A stretch of DNA of 59,545 bases from a virus (Duplodnaviria; Caudoviricetes). The notes under the pieces are model-generated. The model worked only from the letters and a program-made list of their open reading frames with translations. It searched no databases and was not told where the DNA came from. Shown here piece by piece: positions 506-9,445 of this stretch (positions within the stretch are counted from its first letter, which is position 1; each line of letters opens with the position of its first letter). The DNA lies in the IMG/VR virus record IMGVR_UViG_3300045284_000044, positions 1 through 59,545 of that record. One strand, given 5' to 3'. The translations under genes were made by a program, and so were the position numbers.

Positions 506-973
506 GTGACTTCAACCGAAACCCCTGAGAAAGTGGATGATCGCATTACGGATTATCAGGCAGACTTGGCAAAGGCCCGCAATCGCTTCGATACGATTAC
601 GCAATGGCACATTGAAGCAATGATGGCGGTTCCTGAGCTTCCTCTGCCTTACGTGGACGCTAACACGGTTTACTGTAACGTGGAGGACGAGGACGGTAAG
701 ATTGACGTTCCTGCTACCAAGTCCTTGCTTCGCAAGGTGTCCAAGTTCGCGCTTTCAAAGGGATACGAAGTCAAGAAAGATTACTCGTATGACTTCAGTG
801 TCAAGGTGATTCTGAAGGACGAGTATCCGCGCATTAGCGTTAGCTACAGCGTTGATCGCGCAGCGGTCTGCACCAAAAGGGTTGTGGATACAAAGGTTGT
901 TCCTGCTCGCACGATTCCCGAAAAGATCGAAGAGGTCGTGGAGTGGGATTGCGGTACCCTGCTCGGAGACTAA
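506..973 (+). CDS. Early hypothetical protein (155 aa)
   Basis: Long ORF with purine-rich GAAAGAGGGGTGA element upstream. Confidence 0.8.
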   Translation: MTSTETPEKVDDRITDYQADLAKARNRFDTITQWHIEAMMAVPELPLPYVDANTVYCNVEDEDGKIDVPATKSLLRKVSKFALSKGYEVKKDYSYDFSVKVILKDEYPRISVSYSVDRAAVCTKRVVDTKVVPARTIPEKIEEVVEWDCGTLLGD

Positions 974-1042
974 GTAGCACGGACTAGCCTACAGCCATAC
1001 AAGCACAGCACAGCATAGGTAGGCTAGTCTACGGTACTTAGT
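969..1042 (+). repeat. G.G-mismatch hairpin C
   Basis: ACTAAGTA-G-CAC-GGACTAGCCTAC...GTAGGCTAGTCT-ACG-G-TACTTAGT; the loop contains GCACAGCACAG. Confidence 0.8.
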
Positions 1043-1045
1043 ACC

Positions 1046-1188
1046 AGTAGTTGCATAAGACAGAGACAAAGAAAAAGCCGTACCCCTCTAAAGGTGCCCA
1101 AAGGGCATCCGATTGTAACGTGCAATCAAGGCGGGTCTAATACAGAAACGGCCCTGACGAGGATAAGTCTCTGTCTTATGGAGCTACT
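1046..1188 (+). ncRNA. Putative structured RNA cassette D (long closing stem plus multi-hairpin cargo)
   Basis: AGTAGTT-G-CATAAGACAGAGAC ... GTCTCTGTCTTATG-G-AGCTACT; internal stems GCCGT/ACGGC, TGCCC/GGGCA, GATTG/CAATC; no ORF of 60 aa or more. Confidence 0.7.
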
Positions 1189-1193
1189 TACAA

Positions 1194-1432
1194 AGTAGTT
1201 GCATAAGGTAGTAGACGAAATCCACGTGAGAATGGTGGATGCGAGAAGATAGAGGCGGCAAAGGCCTACCGGCATCTATCATAAGCATAGCGTGTAAAAC
1301 CGTGGCCCTGCAAGCTGGTTGAGCACTGATACTTGGAGAGTGCAAAAGAGCCAGTAGGTAAGGCGGTAGCGTAAACCATTCAATAGGCGCCGTGGCCCTG
1401 CAAAGATAAGTCTACTACCTTATGGAGCTACT
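1194..1432 (+). ncRNA. Putative structured RNA cassette E
   Basis: AGTAGTT-G-CATAAGGTAGTAGAC ... GTCTACTACCTTATG-G-AGCTACT; outer arms identical to cassette D, inner arms differ compensatorily; several internal hairpins. Confidence 0.7.
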
Positions 1433-1437
1433 AGCGA

Positions 1438-1466
1438 TTGACAGGTAGTTCTGTACGTGCTAAGCT
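1438..1466 (+). promoter_or_regulatory. Sigma70/SigA-type promoter with extended -10
   Basis: TTGACA(1438-1443)-17 bp-TAAGCT(1461-1466), with TG-N. Confidence 0.8.
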
Positions 1467-1513
1467 TTACCCGTACTTTGACAACCTAGAGCACCGAAAG
1501 GGGGTGAACTTTC

Positions 1514-1825
1514 ATGCCCAGCGAACTGAACCTTTCGGAGATTAAGGATCTGCTCAATTCTGGCAAGAGCCGGTTGTATAAGCCTTGCATCATTGAATTC
1601 GTCAAGTCCGACGAAATCTATGAGGATATGATGCAGAATCCTGCATTCACTGAGAAGAATGCTAGTTCCGTATTCCAGAGCTTCAAGAACAATCTGGATA
1701 AGCTCGTTCGTGACAACCCGGATTGGCCTCACATTGAGGTCAAGAAGGCAGAGAAGGATGGTAAGGAGCTTGTGCTTCTTATCAATATGACTCTGCTTGC
1801 CGGCGCTGTTGCCGACGAGGACTAG
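1514..1825 (+). CDS. Small early protein, paralog of 8623..8922 and probably 6007..6240 (possible DNA-binding)
   Basis: RBS GAAAGGGGGTGA; shares R-x(1-2)-Y...FVKS...V[LF][LV]IN pattern with 8623..8922. Confidence 0.8.
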   Translation: MPSELNLSEIKDLLNSGKSRLYKPCIIEFVKSDEIYEDMMQNPAFTEKNASSVFQSFKNNLDKLVRDNPDWPHIEVKKAEKDGKELVLLINMTLLAGAVADED

Positions 1826-1915
1826 CTCAGTGGAGTCTCCAATCTGCTCACAATAATGGTGGGCGGAGTGTACCTGAGCTTGTCAACAGAAATCAGGACT
1901 CTAGCACAGGTTTAC

Positions 1916-2009
1916 GAGCGAGCGTAAGATGATTTAGGGAATCTGGTGGCACAGCGGGTAACATAGATTACCGGGCCATCAATGTAGGTTCGAATCCTAC
2001 CGCCGCTCA
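1916..2009 (+). ncRNA. tRNA-like RNA 1 (acceptor helix and T-arm; D and anticodon arms replaced by one long irregular hairpin)
   Basis: GAGCG(A)GCG pairs with CGCCGCTC-A; T-arm GTAGG-TTCGAAT-CCTAC. Confidence 0.65.
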
Positions 2010-2017
2010 TTGTAAGT

Positions 2018-2141
2018 CTGTAGTTGCACCCCGCACAGATAGCGTGCTTAGCCTTGCGAGGCGGCCGTTCGTTACCACGGCGGGCAAAGGCCAAGTTACG
2101 TGGTTGCAACCTTTGCTTATCTGTGCGGAGTGGAGCTACAG
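2018..2141 (+). ncRNA. Putative structured RNA cassette F
   Basis: CTGTAGTT-G-CAC-C-CCGCACAGATA ... TATCTGTGCGG-A-GTG-G-AGCTACAG enclosing three hairpins (GCCT/AGGC, GCCGT/ACGGC, GGCAAAGG/CCTTTGCT). Confidence 0.7.
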
Positions 2142-2162
2142 TAGAATGGAGGTGAAAATCAA

Positions 2163-2336
2163 ATGGCATTCACATTGCGGAAGGCTTCCGTTACTCCCAA
2201 GGGAGACTTCATTTGCAAGGACTCGCAGTTCGCAACTAAGCGGGAACTGAAGGCGGAAATCGCGCGATCCTCATACAGCGATATCCGGTGGATTCCCGGT
2301 ACCAGAATCATGGCGATGCGCTTGAAGTCCAGATAA
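2163..2336 (+). CDS. 57-aa basic hypothetical protein (not in the ORF track)
   Basis: Strong RBS GGAGGTG; MAFTLRKASVTPKGDFICKDSQFATKRELKAEIARSS... Confidence 0.7.
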   Translation: MAFTLRKASVTPKGDFICKDSQFATKRELKAEIARSSYSDIRWIPGTRIMAMRLKSR

Positions 2337-2455
2337 TGCACCACTTGACTGGACTAGCATTGATGCATTACCTCATGCTCGCAATGAAGCAAGGTTACCA
2401 TTGTTGGGCTGAGTATCGCAATCACCGCTATGACTTTTACTGCGGTGACAAGTAG
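2336..2455 (+). CDS. 39-aa hypothetical protein
   Basis: TAATG stop/start coupling to the upstream ORF; MHHLTGLALMHYLMLAMKQGYHCWAEYRNHRYDFYCGDK. Confidence 0.5.
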   Translation: MHHLTGLALMHYLMLAMKQGYHCWAEYRNHRYDFYCGDK

Positions 2456-2512
2456 GGCATAGTAAGGGCCACGTTAAAGTACCAGTACCAGCACAAACAA
2501 ACTTAACAACGT

Positions 2513-2669
2513 GCCCCCGCTGCTGAGCTAATCCAGAGAATTAGCGAGAGTGGTAACGCAGAGCAGCTGGACAACGATTGGTACCACGGTATTAACTTTT
2601 CGGCTGGTACCCGAAAAACCAAGACCGCAATCATCCATATCGTCGCAGGTTCGAGTCCTGCCGGGGGCT
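2513..2669 (+). ncRNA. tRNA-like RNA 2 (157-nt expanded cloverleaf)
   Basis: 7-bp acceptor GCCCCCG/CGGGGGC; T-arm GCAGG-TTCGAGT-CCTGC; D-stem GCTG/CAGC with inserted GCTAAT/ATTAGC hairpin and AGTGGTAA; branched domain in place of the anticodon loop. Confidence 0.7.
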
Positions 2670-2993
2670 GCTTACTATCATAACGAGGCGTCAGAATTAG
2701 AGCCACAGGCCACGCCTACCTACTTTAGTGGTCTAGGACTAGATAAGAACCGTGTGAAGTGAGTTTCAGCGCTACGGTCGCCACTTACGAATAGCAACAG
2801 GGTCGAGTATACGGTAATGAGCAAACAGTCCGAGTGAGTATGCGAATCTCGCCTGCTAACCCTAACGCTTTGTGTAAAGTGCTCGCCCAGGAGGGCGTAA
2901 ACAAAACCGGCTAAAAGTAACCGAGTCGGTCTATAAATCTATAGGGTTACTCAGATGCTAGTATCAGATAAACTAGCTATCCACAATGGTGGC

Positions 2994-3042
2994 AGCCTGT
3001 GCGGTTTAGGCCGATTCCGGAGTTCAACTCTCTGGCAGGCTA
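2994..3042 (+). ncRNA. tRNA-like RNA 3 (49-nt mini-tRNA)
   Basis: Acceptor AGCCTGT/GCAGGCT-A; single hairpin CGGT-TTAG-GCCG; T-arm CGGAG-TTCAACT-CTCTG. Confidence 0.55.
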
Positions 3043-3211
3043 TCGACTACAGAAAAGAGGTCAAAGGTGAAATCGCATCAGGATTTCGCATATGATAGCG
3101 ACAGATATCTTCTGGCCTATCATTTCACTCGGCTGTGGCGCATTAGGCACGTAGCCGTAGCCAGAGATTCCCTGAGGCAAAACATCAGGGCACAACGGAA
3201 GGCAAAGCAAT

Positions 3212-3409
3212 ATGACCAATCTCACTAAAGCTAAAGTAACGTACATCAAGTGCCCAAATGTAACGTGTAAGCGTTACCCTGTAATCGCACAGATTCCAAC
3301 TGCGACGGGTGATCTTTACTGCACAGCTTGCGGTTGCGATCACAGTTCCGGCCTCGATGCTAGGGAGATTCTAGTAAAGATCAAGGCACATCTCAGACTA
3401 GCCGCCTGA
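3212..3409 (+). CDS. Small zinc-ribbon-like protein
   Basis: CPNVTC ... CTAC cysteine pairs. Confidence 0.65.
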   Translation: MTNLTKAKVTYIKCPNVTCKRYPVIAQIPTATGDLYCTACGCDHSSGLDAREILVKIKAHLRLAA

Positions 3410-3431
3410 GTAAACAAAGCGGCTACAAAAC

Positions 3432-3576
3432 TTAGTTCGATAATGGAGCTAATCGGCCACTACATAGTCATACGATTAGGTCGGCCATAGATACGGGTCG
3501 AAAGCCCTATGGGTCTATGCGAACCCTCTGAAAGTCACTGGCATGATAGCGCCGGTTAGCTCCATTATCCAACTAA
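3432..3576 (+). ncRNA. Putative structured RNA cassette G
   Basis: TTAGTT-C-GATAATGGAGCTAATCGGC ... GCCGGTTAGCTCCATTATC-C-AACTAA (about 25 bp, one C.C mismatch) enclosing nested stems with a GAAA loop. Confidence 0.7.
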
Positions 3577-3586
3577 AGGGGTTCAC

Positions 3587-3748
3587 GTGAATTTAGTATT
3601 GAAGTTGGACGATAATGTTGTGTACGCTGTGCTTGCTGCGATTGCATTTATCACAGTAACTATAGCGACGTACAAGACCCTGACGTTTAGGGATTACGGT
3701 ACGCAGCCGCAACAGCACGAACAGCCGGGTGATACCTGGCACAAGTAA
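3587..3748 (+). CDS. 53-aa single-pass membrane protein (not in the ORF track)
   Basis: RBS AAAGGGG, GTG start; hydrophobic stretch VVYAVLAAIAFITVTIA. Confidence 0.55.
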   Translation: MNLVLKLDDNVVYAVLAAIAFITVTIATYKTLTFRDYGTQPQQHEQPGDTWHK

Positions 3749-3759
3749 AGGGAAAGGAG

Positions 3760-4143
3760 GTGATTACTATCAGCCTCAAGAGGGGGATACCCCATGACAT
3801 CACAAAACTTGGTGAATGGTGTCCGGTATGTGGACAACTTACCGACGAACATACGACCGCAAAATTGCGCGACATTTATGACAGACTCAGAGACGGTCGT
3901 AGCACCTATGAAGCACTAGTCTTTACGTCTGATTGGCTGCAAGAAAACATTCATGACGAAGAAGATGAAGAATCGGTAATGCTTGCAATGGAACGTGACA
4001 TGGCATATCGCGGTCTTTGTACCGGCTGTGCGCGTCCTGACCTACGTAACATTAAGCCCTCTGACGTAATGTCAGAAGAAGAAGCCCAAGATCTACATGA
4101 AATGTGGGCAGAACAAGCAGCCGAGCGTAGAGCAGGTTGTTAG
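3760..4143 (+). CDS. Acidic Cys-containing hypothetical protein
   Basis: RBS GGGAAAGGAG; CPVC and CTGC motifs. Confidence 0.75.
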   Translation: MITISLKRGIPHDITKLGEWCPVCGQLTDEHTTAKLRDIYDRLRDGRSTYEALVFTSDWLQENIHDEEDEESVMLAMERDMAYRGLCTGCARPDLRNIKPSDVMSEEEAQDLHEMWAEQAAERRAGC

Positions 4144-4212
4144 CATCGTGGTTAGGGTGAAGTAGCCCAGTGCAGAGTGGACTAAAGCCCTAATAAATCC
4201 ACTCAAATTTTT

Positions 4213-4283
4213 GGCCCGTTCGTCTAATGGCAGGACGTCGCACTTTCCATGCGATGGCGTGAGTTCGATTCTCACACGGGCTA
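4213..4283 (+). tRNA. tRNA-Glu(TTC), atypical C at position 37
   Basis: Acceptor GGCCCGT/ACGGGCT-A; D-arm GTC..GAC; anticodon arm TCGCA-CTTTCCA-TGCGA; T-arm GTGAG-TTCGATT-CTCAC; no encoded CCA. Confidence 0.85.
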
Positions 4284-4359
4284 TTGCTAACTCGGCTTAA
4301 AACCAGTAAGTATTTCTGGCGCCGACGGATTCTAGATCGTTAGCGAAGGAGGTGATAAA

Positions 4360-4719
4360 ATGAGTGAGTTCGGTTCGGGTGTTGTCGTGTGTCTGGCAAA
4401 GTTCAGTCAGCACTTGGACAATATCCACCGTTTCAAGGAAACGTATACCAGCATTGGCAAGGATGAAACTTCAGTTTTGTATGACGCGATCACAATGGCG
4501 ATGAACGGTGCCTCAGATCACTTCTATGATTTGGATAGGGATAAGGCACCTGAGTCGCTTATCAAGCTTGCCGATCTAACACTTGAAATCGGCCACGGTT
4601 TTCGTGGAGGTGTAGTCTACACACAAGACACAGTTGATGAAATCTTCAAGCTTTGGGAAGAGTCGTGTCTTGCCGTAGACAAAATGCTTGGTGTCGATGG
4701 TGATTGGGGTACGTGGTAG
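4360..4719 (+). CDS. Hypothetical protein
   Basis: RBS AAGGAGGTG, 119 aa. Confidence 0.8.
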   Translation: MSEFGSGVVVCLAKFSQHLDNIHRFKETYTSIGKDETSVLYDAITMAMNGASDHFYDLDRDKAPESLIKLADLTLEIGHGFRGGVVYTQDTVDEIFKLWEESCLAVDKMLGVDGDWGTW

Positions 4720-6006: not shown

Positions 6007-6240
6007 TTGGGAAAAGATTTCAAGCTTGTACCAGTACCTGAACTACCAGATTTCAAAGCTAAGGCAAGGCGATTGATCGACGAGTTTTTAGAGATGGATA
6101 CTCCCTTTGCTGAGATACAAGAAGCGAGCGCAACAGACTTGAGTATGTTACGGGTCTATATAAATAATCGTCGCCATAGAGAAGAATTGCCCGTAACAAT
6201 CAAACAACTTGACGATAAGGCTTTTCTAGTTAGGATCTAA
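6007..6240 (+). CDS. Small protein, distant paralog of 1514..1825 and 8623..8922
   Basis: LIDEFL...AEI...VTIKQLDDKAFLVRI resembles the EFVKS...V..KDDHVFVIN pattern. Confidence 0.65.
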   Translation: MGKDFKLVPVPELPDFKAKARRLIDEFLEMDTPFAEIQEASATDLSMLRVYINNRRHREELPVTIKQLDDKAFLVRI

Positions 6241-7283: not shown

Positions 7284-7758
7284 TGTTACTGATACTGGGA
7301 TTGGCGACGATAGCAATTCTAGTGGTAGCACTAGTTCTCATGAAGCTGTATGTATTTCTCCAAATACACAAGATGTAAACGTAAACGTCGGCATGATTAA
7401 GTCAACGTATCACTTATCAGGAAAGCCGAACGAACGGTTAATCCTGATCCATTTGTGTGAGAGAGTAGGAGCACAGTTCAAGTATGATGCAGAGAATGAC
7501 TGGTGTGTAGTTACGGCGTTAGATCCAAAGCACTTACAGCAAGTCCGATCAGAATTCGACAGTGTTATCCAGTACGGAATTCGAAATCTTGTGTGGTTAC
7601 AAGCAGACCCAAGATACACAGGAGTGTCTGTAAAAACACTACACTCGGAATTCATGCGAGGTTTTGCTAATGGTATCATTGGTGAGGGCAACTACGTCCG
7701 ATCCAAAACCGCAATCGAACGAAAAGGATTGAGAGCGGGGTTAGCTTATGGGAAGTGA
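7252..7758 (+). CDS. Hypothetical protein (true start probably downstream)
   Basis: ORF tiles the operon. Confidence 0.6.
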   Translation: MQKRWPTAASNVTDTGIGDDSNSSGSTSSHEAVCISPNTQDVNVNVGMIKSTYHLSGKPNERLILIHLCERVGAQFKYDAENDWCVVTALDPKHLQQVRSEFDSVIQYGIRNLVWLQADPRYTGVSVKTLHSEFMRGFANGIIGEGNYVRSKTAIERKGLRAGLAYGK

Positions 7759-8032
7759 ACTGAGTATTGACACAATCAAGGAACTACTGGCAAGTAAGCC
7801 TAAGCGTGGCGGTAGTCCTCGTAAAGACGTAACAGAGCCACGGACTATCGAAAACTGGTGGAAACAACAGCAACACTTTGTTAATGCTGAGGATACAGGA
7901 CTTGTTTGCATGAATGTAAACTGTCTCGATCCAAAACCAGGTAGAGTTAGAGTTTTGGCTGATATTAAAGGCCGAATGTGTTGTAGGTATTGTTTCCTCG
8001 ATGGTTGGCTGAGTGGTAAAGAGTATGACTGA
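7748..8032 (+). CDS. Zinc-finger-like protein carrying the LSIDTIKELL motif
   Basis: CMNVNC ... CCRYC. Confidence 0.7.
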   Translation: MGSELSIDTIKELLASKPKRGGSPRKDVTEPRTIENWWKQQQHFVNAEDTGLVCMNVNCLDPKPGRVRVLADIKGRMCCRYCFLDGWLSGKEYD

Positions 8033-8555
8033 TATTCAGGACACTCAGGAAGGCCCTAGTGACTTAGATGGGCCTAACGGGGATATCCCGGCTCACGTCC
8101 GTACCAGGTTTGCGGGGAATGATACCCTTCTTAGCCTTACCACCAAACTTTACGACGGAATGGAGGAACGCGCGAATAAGGGTGTTTATGTCGGAAGTAT
8201 CACTAAGCTGTTTGACGAGCTGAGACTACCGCAAGCGTATTACTCGCGGATTACGCAGCAGTTGAAGAAGTTAGGCTATGCCGAGCAGATTGAGCGCGGC
8301 GCACCCGGCCGCCCGTCAGTCTGGAAACTATGGCACCGTCCAGACCCGGACACCTGGAAACTTCTATACGTCCGGCGGGGCGAAGGGTTGACACCCCCGC
8401 CCGGACGTGATACGCTTACGAGTGTAAGCAACCGGGTAGAGGCACTAGAGAAAAGGCTTGGCGGATTAAATGTAGTAACGGCAATAGCCGAACTAAGCAA
8501 AGAAATCCAAAAAGCACAGGAGAGAATAGATGGCCTCTCGACAGCAACAGAGTAA
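8013..8555 (+). CDS. Putative winged-helix DNA-binding protein with C-terminal coiled coil
   Basis: ITKLFDELRLPQAYYSRITQQLKKLGYAEQIERG...SVWKL resembles a wHTH. Confidence 0.6.
   Translation: MVKSMTDIQDTQEGPSDLDGPNGDIPAHVRTRFAGNDTLLSLTTKLYDGMEERANKGVYVGSITKLFDELRLPQAYYSRITQQLKKLGYAEQIERGAPGRPSVWKLWHRPDPDTWKLLYVRRGEGLTPPPGRDTLTSVSNRVEALEKRLGGLNVVTAIAELSKEIQKAQERIDGLSTATE
8388..8416 (+). promoter_or_regulatory. Intragenic sigma70/SigA-type promoter
   Basis: TTGACA(8388-8393)-17 bp-TACGCT(8411-8416), with TG-N. Confidence 0.75.
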
Positions 8556-8922: not shown

Positions 8923-8941
8923 TATTAATTAGCCAAGTATG

Positions 8942-8969
8942 GGGGAGGGTTACCACAAGTAACCCTCCC
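8942..8969 (+). terminator. GC-rich hairpin after 8623..8922
   Basis: GGGAGGGTTAC-CACAA-GTAACCCTCCC; no U-tract, so may be a processing or stability hairpin. Confidence 0.45.
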
Positions 8970-8970
8970 T

Positions 8971-9125
8971 CATAAAAGGGTGCAATTACATACCTAGGAC
9001 TGCTGTTATACAGTTACCGAGATTAAGGTACGTACTAACTGTTTAAGGCGCCATACGCAGCTAGTAAGGAACTTGTCCCGATTAACTGAAACAGTAGGAA
9101 CAAAGTGTAATTGCACCCTTTTATG
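8971..9125 (+). ncRNA. Putative structured RNA cassette H
   Basis: 21-bp closing stem CATAAAAGGGTGCAATTACAT/GTGTAATTGCACCCTTTTATG around about 113 nt with nested stems (CTGC/GCAG, ACAGTTA/TAACTGT). Confidence 0.65.
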
Positions 9126-9172
9126 GGACACTCAACCCATACACAGTAACACTACATAGGAGCTAGATTCAA

Positions 9173-9355: not shown

Positions 9356-9369
9356 GTAAAACAAAATGT

Positions 9370-9445
9370 GCGGGTTCAAATCCTGCCCGTGGCCGTAGAC
9401 TACGGAAACGCTACATGGCAGTAGCGAAAGAGGTTGGCTTCCTCT
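9370..9445 (+). ncRNA. tRNA-like RNA 4, circularly permuted arm order
   Basis: T-arm GCGGG-TTCAAAT-CCTGC, then loop-closed helix CCGTGG/CTACGG, then CGCTAC-ATGGCA-GTAGCG, then AGAGG-TTGGCTT-CCTCT. Confidence 0.6.

Follow-up and report, generated by a model that had tools for sequence, protein, structure and literature searches.

A tRNA-mimic element and its conserved partner hairpin in an uncultured phage genome: a candidate Y-RNA-like non-coding RNA

Introduction

The DNA analysed here, to which we will refer as the window, is the whole IMG/VR virus record IMGVR_UViG_3300045284_000044 (59,545 nucleotides (nt), completeness rating 100%), the genome of an uncultured phage of the Caudoviricetes. 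On its + strand, at 2513-2669, lies a 157-nt element which presents the top half of a transfer RNA (tRNA) without a canonical anticodon arm, and about 10 nt after its discriminator base begins a hairpin that recurs in many other uncultured phages. We propose, at what we would call an even balance of confidence, that the element is the tRNA-mimic half of a two-part, Y-RNA-like non-coding phage RNA and not a decoding tRNA. The most conserved part of the locus (the hairpin motif at 2681-2719) and the link with Y RNAs are absent from the preliminary description of this DNA, which had been made from its letters.

The window encodes an SNF2 helicase, an exonuclease, a primase, a family A DNA polymerase, a Sak4-like protein, a large terminase, a protease and a major head protein. 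Its polymerase is less than 30% identical to those of cultured phages among the best matches, and stays below 60% across all 4405 matching records. Long open reading frames (ORFs) are few in the first 4.2 kb, as they are in the region 900-4400, and ARAGORN calls three ordinary tRNAs in the window, among them a tRNA-Glu at 4212. Related phages (80 loci of uncultured phages) were recovered with a helicase alignment, a single helicase protein query having returned no relatives; labels such as L012, L020 or L114 designate individual loci compared in the analysis. A blastn search of cultured phages with window 2300-2900 gave zero matches, an exact scan of viral contigs for the central hairpin of the element found none, and Pfam returned nothing above cut-off for the small ORFs around and across the element.

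Architecture of the element

The outer frame of the element is that of a tRNA. The acceptor 5' strand GCCCCCG (2513-2519) forms seven of seven Watson-Crick pairs, all G:C, with CGGGGGC (2662-2668), which is followed by the discriminator U2669; CCA is not encoded. The same 5' strand is present in the L012 homologue, and it covaries in L020. The T arm GCAGG-UUCGAGU-CCUGC (2645-2661; stem 2645-2649/2657-2661, loop 2650-2656) is preceded by a variable-loop equivalent, UAUCGUC (2638-2644). The D region is expanded to 46 nt (2522-2567), an outer stem GCUG/CAGC (2522-2525 with 2564-2567) enclosing an inner hairpin GCUAAU-CCAGAGA-AUUAGC (2527-2545; strands 2527-2532 with 2540-2545) and a D-loop-like stretch AGUGGUAA (DNA letters AGTGGTAA; 2549-2556), which contains GG. 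The anticodon position is occupied by a 70-nt arm (2568-2637) with the helices UGGA/UCCA, GAUUG/CAAUC, CGGU/ACCG and UUUUCGG/CCGAAAA.

The preliminary description had listed the perfect 7-bp acceptor, the canonical T arm, the extra GCTAAT/ATTAGC hairpin with the D-loop-like AGTGGTAA, and the pairings at the anticodon position, and all of them are indeed present. Its "branched domain" in place of the anticodon loop was not borne out, as both minimum free energy (MFE) and constrained folds give an unbranched rod with internal loops, closed by the 7-nt terminal loop CUGGUAC (2604-2610). A bulge in this rod, GUACCA (2581-2586), is complementary to nucleotides 2605-2610 of the terminal loop (UGGUAC), a 6-nt Watson-Crick match with p 0.017 against shuffled upstream sequence, and the two could possibly form a loop-bulge pseudoknot or a dimerisation site. 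The element as a whole has an MFE of -54.2 kcal/mol (z -2.3), with equally good folds in 2 of 200 shuffles; when the 355 nt upstream were shuffled 5000 times, 92 of the shuffles contained a perfect Watson-Crick partner for the 3' acceptor strand.

tRNA finders do not recognise this RNA. ARAGORN makes no tRNA or tmRNA (transfer-messenger RNA) call at 2513-2669, and the Rfam tRNA model (RF00005) reaches 16.4 bits (E 1.7, cut-off 29) over an aligned span of 2583-2669 only, an alignment obtained solely by taking the tip of the rod as an anticodon arm. The tRNA features present are the 7-bp acceptor and a 5-bp T stem with a UUCRANY-type loop; a 5-bp anticodon stem with a 7-nt loop after position 26 and a 4-bp D stem with a 7-11-nt loop are lacking. 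The Rfam search of the window gave neither an Intron_gpI nor a tmRNA match. A tRNA with a group I intron would carry about 200 nt or more, with a group I core, in its anticodon loop; here the extra RNA amounts to about 80 nt and is split over two sites.

In contigs from four soil DNA runs the interval 2140-2595 was left uncovered, so that no variation could be read in the inserts. In the same four runs, 31-letter contigs covering window 2641-2668 (T arm plus acceptor 3' strand, with one mismatch) reach a depth of 9-30, far above the 2-4 of the phage itself; this sequence is probably common to an abundant bacterial tRNA.

The conserved partner motif

The element is followed by a linker, GCUUACUAUCA (2670-2680, + strand), which corresponds to the 5' strand of the closing helix of the partner in other phages and whose pairing partner in the window is uncertain. 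The partner hairpin UAACG-AGGCGU-(20-nt loop)-ACGCCU-AC comes next (2681-2719, + strand); its exact pattern recurs elsewhere and is the core of a three-way-junction model, R1. The continuation on its 3' side (2720-2764, + strand) is divergent, and MFE folding of it gives CUACUUUAG..., a small hairpin UCUAG-GA-CUAGA and a possible closing strand GUGUGAAGUGAGU.

Exact scans for the hairpin located 35 stretches in IMG/VR, where the contigs measure 13 to 190 kb, and 7 in species-representative genomes, of which two are coding-sequence look-alikes and two are one sequence in different metagenome-assembled genomes (MAGs); a metagenome scan for the subtype ending in ACGCCUACCU yielded 18 stretches. 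The contigs that bear the motif are of diverse viral origin, and the MAGs are labelled archaeal, candidate phyla radiation (CPR) and proteobacterial. Of the 33 distinct contexts, 21 have the hairpin as the central arm of a three-way junction, with the order P1, three variable bases, UAACG, P2 (AGGCGU/ACGCCU), ACAA, a P3 hairpin, (A/G)GAG and the return strand of P1. P3 often carries a GAAA loop, and in some contexts an extra hairpin follows GUA.

A covariance model, R1, was built for this junction and the copies were re-found with it. In an alignment of 22 sequences, which was itself fitted to R1, 98.3% of the cells are paired versus 78.0% in shuffles, and the covariation score is 0.431 versus 0.094 (0 of 500 shuffles reach it), slid controls remaining at or below 0.046. 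Nine of the 15 pairs vary on both sides, and these are all nine pairs of P1 and P3; P2 is invariant, which is partly due to the way the set was gathered. Rfam 15, run on 13 motif loci, gave tRNA matches only and nothing relevant at E<=10.

A copy of the junction is also present, unannotated, in a cultured phage, the Tetrasphaera phage TJE1 (locus L117 1503-1559; NC_019930 37778-37834). It lies between an upstream -35-like TTGACA and a strong terminator-like hairpin, with no tRNA mimic upstream, and the locus likely produces a small RNA (sRNA) of about 180 nt. When neighbour proteins were compared across the motif loci, the largest shared cluster covered 10 loci, all from one closely related group. 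Since no protein family travels with the RNA, it would act alone or via host factors.

Some simpler identities for the motif were tried and set aside. A riboswitch-type attenuator does not fit the motif in general, as convincing terminator-like hairpins soon after the motif were seen only in L090, L115 and L117 among 37 contexts scanned. A boxA/nut-like reading of UGCUCUUUA after the L012 mimic fails because this strand pairs and covaries as P1 in other members, and a literature search combining boxA, tRNA-like, antitermination and phage found none. By eye, a Shine-Dalgarno-like reading of UAACGAGG was unconvincing, and threading of the motif onto the hepatitis delta virus (HDV) ribozyme failed.

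Homologues and the mimic family

Among the related loci, blastn with the element matched its 3' end in L012/L013. The L012 homologue (165 nt, z -3.6) has the acceptor of the window, a UUUGAAU T loop and an interior that is entirely different; that of L020 (154 nt, z -3.0) has an acceptor GGGGGCA/UGUCCUC and a T stem GUAGG/CCUAC, both with compensatory changes. In the window, L012 and L020 the acceptor is followed by U, GCU, 8-11 nt and then UAACGAGGCGUCA, a loop and ACGCCUAC. Metagenomes supplied eight further distinct homologues of 131-178 nt, in which acceptor and T stems covary and interiors differ; a first metagenome pattern, running from the T arm to UGCU, had returned 0 stretches. In L012, L020 and these eight, the near-invariant hairpin (UAACG-AGGCGU...ACGCCU-AC) stands within about 30 nt of the discriminator. 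The window itself shows every feature of an anticodon-less mimic with partner, namely the T arm/acceptor frame and UAACGAGGCGUCA...ACGCCUAC no more than about 30 nt after the discriminator.

Mimic and motif occur together in a large number of uncultured phages, the mimics measuring 69 to 178 nt. A strict rule, requiring a T arm and a 7/7 acceptor partner (G:U allowed) just upstream of the motif, was satisfied in 18 of 30 distinct upstream contexts, giving mimics of 69-173 nt. A canonical D arm at positions 10-25 is present in 9 of 17 distinct sequences, and this check weighs more than the strict-rule count, being independent of selection: the D arm was not used in choosing them. U followed by GCU after the acceptor is found in 13 of 17 distinct members of the family.

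The interior of the mimic is where the family diverges. The D-region design (an outer stem plus a hairpin, with a CUA(A)U...AUUAG core) is common to the window, L012, L152 and L155. In L156 and L163 an anticodon-like arm is retained and the extra RNA sits at the position of the variable arm. L107 is the minimal form, 69 nt long, and its anticodon stem of 5 bp ends in the tetraloop UGCG; inserts in the family range from 4 to 107 nt, and beyond L107 the anticodon loop is replaced by 26-107 nt, in the form of rods or two-hairpin domains. As the anticodon stem of L107 is capped by a tetraloop, the anticodon loop is dispensable in this family. Among the inserts, whose pairing conservation the preliminary description had asked for, the D-region hairpin recurs in the window, L012, L152 and L155. 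The sequence and shape of the rod differ wholly between the closest homologues, although these have acceptor and T arm in common, and it is thus better regarded as a variable module than as a conserved ligand pocket. Of the tRNA-scaffolded, aptamer-like RNA proposed earlier, then, the scaffold with its structured cargo stands, the frame being conserved in homologues, and "aptamer-like" finds no support.

In the family as a whole, hairpin loops tend towards complementarity with segments lying no more than 40 nt upstream, with UGGUAC/GUACCA in the window, UUGGAC/GUCCAA in L020 and UGACUA/UAGUCA in L166; the loop of L156 is the palindrome UGAUCA, and loop matches with other sequences are also found in L152, L164 and L088. 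Seven of 31 loops reach p<=0.07 against shuffles (binomial tail 0.005). This pattern suggests a pseudoknot or dimer contact.

The Y RNA connection

The YrlA RNAs are arranged in the order T arm, closed acceptor-like stem-loop and D arm, with their other module formed by the RNA ends, and lie no farther than about 4 kb from a same-strand Ro60 (TROVE) gene, according to the available part of their description (PMC4201824, Chen et al. 2014, RNA 20:1715). Three motif-bearing loci (L100, L114 and L121) carry a circularly permuted mimic with this very order of parts, and the motif comes after it. In L114 (4458-6135) a 498-aa ORF encodes TROVE and Ro60-vWA domains, and the permuted, motif-bearing RNA begins immediately behind its stop codon, with a tRNA-Asn directly after the permuted mimic; the opposite flank of this Ro60 gene carries a canonical YrlA (about 4031). 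Strands upstream of the L114 mimic can be paired by eye with the P1 and P3 strands of the motif, and the junction may thus close around the mimic. In L121 the ends, GAAUUC...GAGCCGUAG, fit a helix formed by the two ends; their reading as a direct repeat was rejected, GAAUUC being palindromic and fitting that helix.

YrlA is also at home among the relatives of the window. Canonical copies are present in six helicase-related loci: L055 (5100-5240; also L054, L056 and L076), L038 (about 6040-6150) and L072 (about 780-900). A TROVE/Ro60 gene was found in five of five sister-phage records tested, about 1-2 kb downstream of YrlA, and cultured phages bearing Ro60 have the same YrlA arrays. By blastn, the T arm region of the element is identical in 19 of 19 nt to the T arm of YrlA in the sister phages L054/L055/L056/L076. 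The window shares with YrlA a T arm and a D arm of the tRNA type and a stem that resembles an acceptor, arranged in normal tRNA strand order and not in the YrlA order.

Other structured RNA in the window

Further structured-looking RNA surrounds the element. Three large elements (1040-1190, 1196-1432 and 2021-2142) are closed by GUAGUUGCA...UGGAGCUAC around 100-200 nt of structured-looking RNA; the contig of a soil relative skips 1188-1437, so that the second of them (1196-1432) is a movable module. A similar hairpin-closed element comes right after the motif in L020, with a 50-nt blastn match to window 1203-1252. At about 1946-2008 there is a small tRNA-like piece, with a GGUGGC/GCCGCU acceptor-like helix, a hairpin GGUAA...UUACC and a T arm GUAGG-UUCGAAU-CCUAC, for which ARAGORN makes no call. 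A mini tRNA-like fold at 2994-3041 combines an acceptor-like AGCCUG/CAGGCU with a T-arm-like hairpin and is a weak match to mascRNA (19.3 bits, cut-off 42.5). A long hairpin closed by GAUAAUGGAGCUAA...UUAGCUCCAUUAUC lies at 3440-3570, in the ORF-poor early region. Farther on, a long inverted repeat between ORFs (8935-9130; GGGAGGGUUAC..., AAAGGGUGCAAUUAC...GUAAUUGCACCCUUUU) stands upstream of an isolated T-arm-like GCGGG-UUCAAAU-CCUGC (9363-9395), which has no tRNA call.

Interpretation and rival explanations

A scan of the + strand of 900-4400 gave no sigma-70 promoter match close to the element or upstream of it, and not a single terminator-like site; for this reason we favour an RNA that is excised from a long early transcript. 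RNase P, RNase Z, the CCA-adding enzyme and the enzymes that modify the T loop recognise the very parts of a tRNA that are conserved here. Under the proposed two-part reading, the element would be transcribed within the long early transcript and the mimic would probably be excised by host tRNA-processing enzymes; RNase P would cut at G2513, and the cut after U2669 would fall to RNase Z or a different nuclease. The excised RNA would act like the Y RNA YrlA, by means of two modules: the tRNA-like one could engage proteins that recognise the tRNA elbow and acceptor, and the conserved hairpin or three-way junction could be the docking site of a second factor, itself conserved. As a module specific to the lineage, the rod would possibly provide the loop-bulge pseudoknot or dimerisation site.

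A broader version of this idea is more tentative, and we regard it as possible, short of likely: mimic and partner may define a new, widespread phage class of ribonucleoprotein (RNP)-adaptor or catalytic RNA, Y-RNA-like, existing in normal and permuted topologies and working without a phage Ro60. The three-way junction would in this case recruit a host factor common to diverse hosts, or catalyse its own processing, and the hypervariable contacts of the rod would set specificity or multimerisation.

Several observations weigh against the Y-RNA-like proposal. The partner copy of the window is divergent (R1 17.2 bits, E 0.61), its 3' half is not confidently modelled, and the contig of the soil relative is without 2697-2790. 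Chance alone would supply a 7-nt acceptor partner, G:U pairs included, in about 31% of the 355-nt stretches upstream, and some of the 18 acceptors accepted by the strict rule, that of L090 for example, may be spurious. The window genome, which is rated complete, has 0 TROVE matches, and L012 and L020 likewise have none; a TROVE gene is found in just 3 of 32 motif-bearing viral records, and is adjacent to the motif solely in L114. R1 had no match beside the Ro60 genes of six cultured phages, and the motif GNCGAAN0-1G, which YrlA has near its 5' end, was not found in window 2300-3200. Finally, the sister phages have their Ro60/YrlA cassette in another slot, flanked by the helicase and by the homologue of window ORF 8013-8555, and the element of the window does not simply replace that cassette.

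The rival that survives best, though we judge it rather unlikely, is that the mimic is processing punctuation only, i.e., an RNase P/RNase Z cleavage signal comparable to mascRNA at the end of MALAT1 or to the tRNAs within mitochondrial transcripts, which would free neighbouring RNAs or mRNAs from a long early transcript and have no later function. The setting suits it, since long ORFs are scarce in 900-4400 and its + strand shows neither a promoter close to the element nor a terminator match, and the same region holds the T loop at 1987-1997, the mascRNA-like match at 2994-3041 (19.3 bits) and the tRNA-Glu at 4212. The interior of the mimic is free to vary, and in TJE1 the motif starts at a promoter without a mimic, hence the 5' end of the motif would be an RNA end either way. 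A cleavage signal, however, could do without a 70-nt rod, a D-region hairpin that is conserved and loop-bulge matches that covary, and the permuted forms with closed acceptor (L100, L114 and L121), which offer no free end to cut as usual, keep the motif nonetheless.

We consider it improbable that the motif downstream acts as a self-cleaving ribozyme and trims the mimic at its 3' end, in the manner of the HDV-like theta ribozymes at phage tRNAs. The highly conserved junction nucleotides (UAACG, ACAA, AGAG) beside freely covarying P1 and P3 resemble ribozyme or aptamer cores, the closing helix begins 2 nt after the discriminator in canonical members, and the very diverse contigs and MAGs without a shared protein neighbour fit a host-independent RNA; tRNA-linked phage ribozymes are also a precedent, as the accessible portion of the theta study reports (PMC10879173). 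Against this, no Rfam ribozyme family matches, even at E<=10, the HDV double pseudoknot could not be threaded by eye, and TJE1 and other loci have the motif without an upstream mimic. Furthermore, the J4/2-equivalent AGAG has no cytosine, and theta ribozymes require a catalytic cytosine as the first nucleotide of J4/2, according to that same portion (PMC10879173, Kienbeck et al. 2024).

The next possibility is that the mimic is a decoy against host defences directed at tRNA, and would sequester toxins or enzymes of the host whose recognition site is the acceptor/T-arm half, such as the nucleotidyltransferase and acetyltransferase toxins known from abortive infection. Only the top half is conserved here, the gene stands in an early region beside real phage tRNAs, and the interior diversifies fast between close relatives. 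Yet the acceptor 3' end is not free unless processed, CCA is not encoded, defence-related neighbour genes were not found, and the invariant partner motif would be left unexplained, so that we give the decoy little credence.

A real tRNA, with the inserts spliced as introns or the long arm tolerated, is very improbable. CUGGUAC would then read ACC (anticodon GGU, Thr): in the 7-nt terminal loop GGU is preceded by U and followed by A, and the Rfam tRNA model aligns this loop as an anticodon arm; Lak megaphages, besides, have oversized tRNA genes with "enigmatic introns" (bioRxiv 10.1101/356790, in the part of the preprint available). The model nevertheless stops at 16.4 bits against a cut-off of 29, with ARAGORN silent and no group I intron found by Rfam. 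Deleting the listed inserts leaves no 5-bp anticodon stem after position 26, the arms of L012 and L020 are tipped by the unrelated loops AGUAG and UUGGAC, and that of L107 by a tetraloop. Last, a decaying tRNA pseudogene or a chance fold, already disfavoured, would account for the silence of the tRNA finders and is scarcely credible in view of covarying homologues in at least 10 further contigs, a conserved partner motif and significant folding in three homologues (window, L012 and L020).

Comparison with known systems

Codon usage and escape from anticodon nucleases are the usual explanations for tRNA genes in phages; the anticodon-less RNAs described here cannot decode, yet they are conserved and widespread, and current genome annotation misses all these genes. 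In phages of soil, marine and other samples the core of the motif is nearly constant, and the permuted forms connect these RNAs to the poorly understood Y RNAs. Finding the partner factor would give a handle on the role of Y-RNA-like mimics in infection, and would perhaps explain RNA C and RNA D of phage T4. No description of the mimic and motif pair was found in the literature, although the candidate tables of PMC10690425, which in its available part reports 10,006 candidate viral RNAs, and of 10.1101/356790 might include it.

The closest known relative in design is YrlA, which, as far as the available part of its description goes (PMC4201824), is likewise a modular non-coding RNA found in phages, with a tRNA-like module joined to a second conserved module; in M. 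smegmatis, the same source reports, YrlA has a 7-bp acceptor that is cut by RNase P. The second module of the window differs: behind the 3' end of the acceptor stands another hairpin or three-way junction, of a kind not described before.

The tRNA-like domain of tmRNA is similar in that it, too, retains acceptor and T arm, with other RNA in place of the anticodon arm. It is distinguished by the 3:70 pair, which is C:G in the element and not G3:U70, and by length, tmRNA having about 250 nt or more and the element 157 nt. Two related phage contigs (L040 and L066) do carry a 333-nt tmRNA with a tag peptide, called by ARAGORN at 7556-7888, and a 108-nt tRNA-like frame at 7337-7444, just upstream of it.

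RNA C of T4 (species 1 RNA, rnaC) is also a phage RNA of comparable size (139 nt), with a T arm CCGGG-UUCGAAU-CCCGG, encoded among tRNA genes. It differs in having no partner motif, R1 giving no match in T4 68000-75000, and no sequence similarity was seen. To our knowledge, RNA C and RNA D, the stable RNAs of the T4 tRNA cluster, have no known function, a puzzle now fifty years old. The Lak megaphage tRNAs are oversized phage tRNA-like genes as well, unclassified by bacterial tRNA finders; in the available part of the preprint they are read as intron-bearing with assignable anticodons, and a partner motif is not described there (Devoto et al., bioRxiv 10.1101/356790). Theta ribozymes, judged from the accessible portion of their report (PMC10879173), resemble the motif as small conserved structured RNAs within a few bases of a phage tRNA-type 3' end; they form a nested double pseudoknot and cleave themselves at their 5' edge, whereas here a three-way junction is found, and the tRNA-like partner here is without anticodon.

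The use of a tRNA-like fold as a handle for RNase P/RNase Z and as a stabilising frame is well known from the mascRNA/MALAT1 signals and from engineered tRNA scaffolds, the latter carrying their cargo in the anticodon position. A partner factor, if found, would show RNA engineers a natural counterpart of their tRNA scaffold. Those systems are eukaryotic or man-made, whereas the RNA of the window is natural, phage-encoded and tied to a conserved partner motif.

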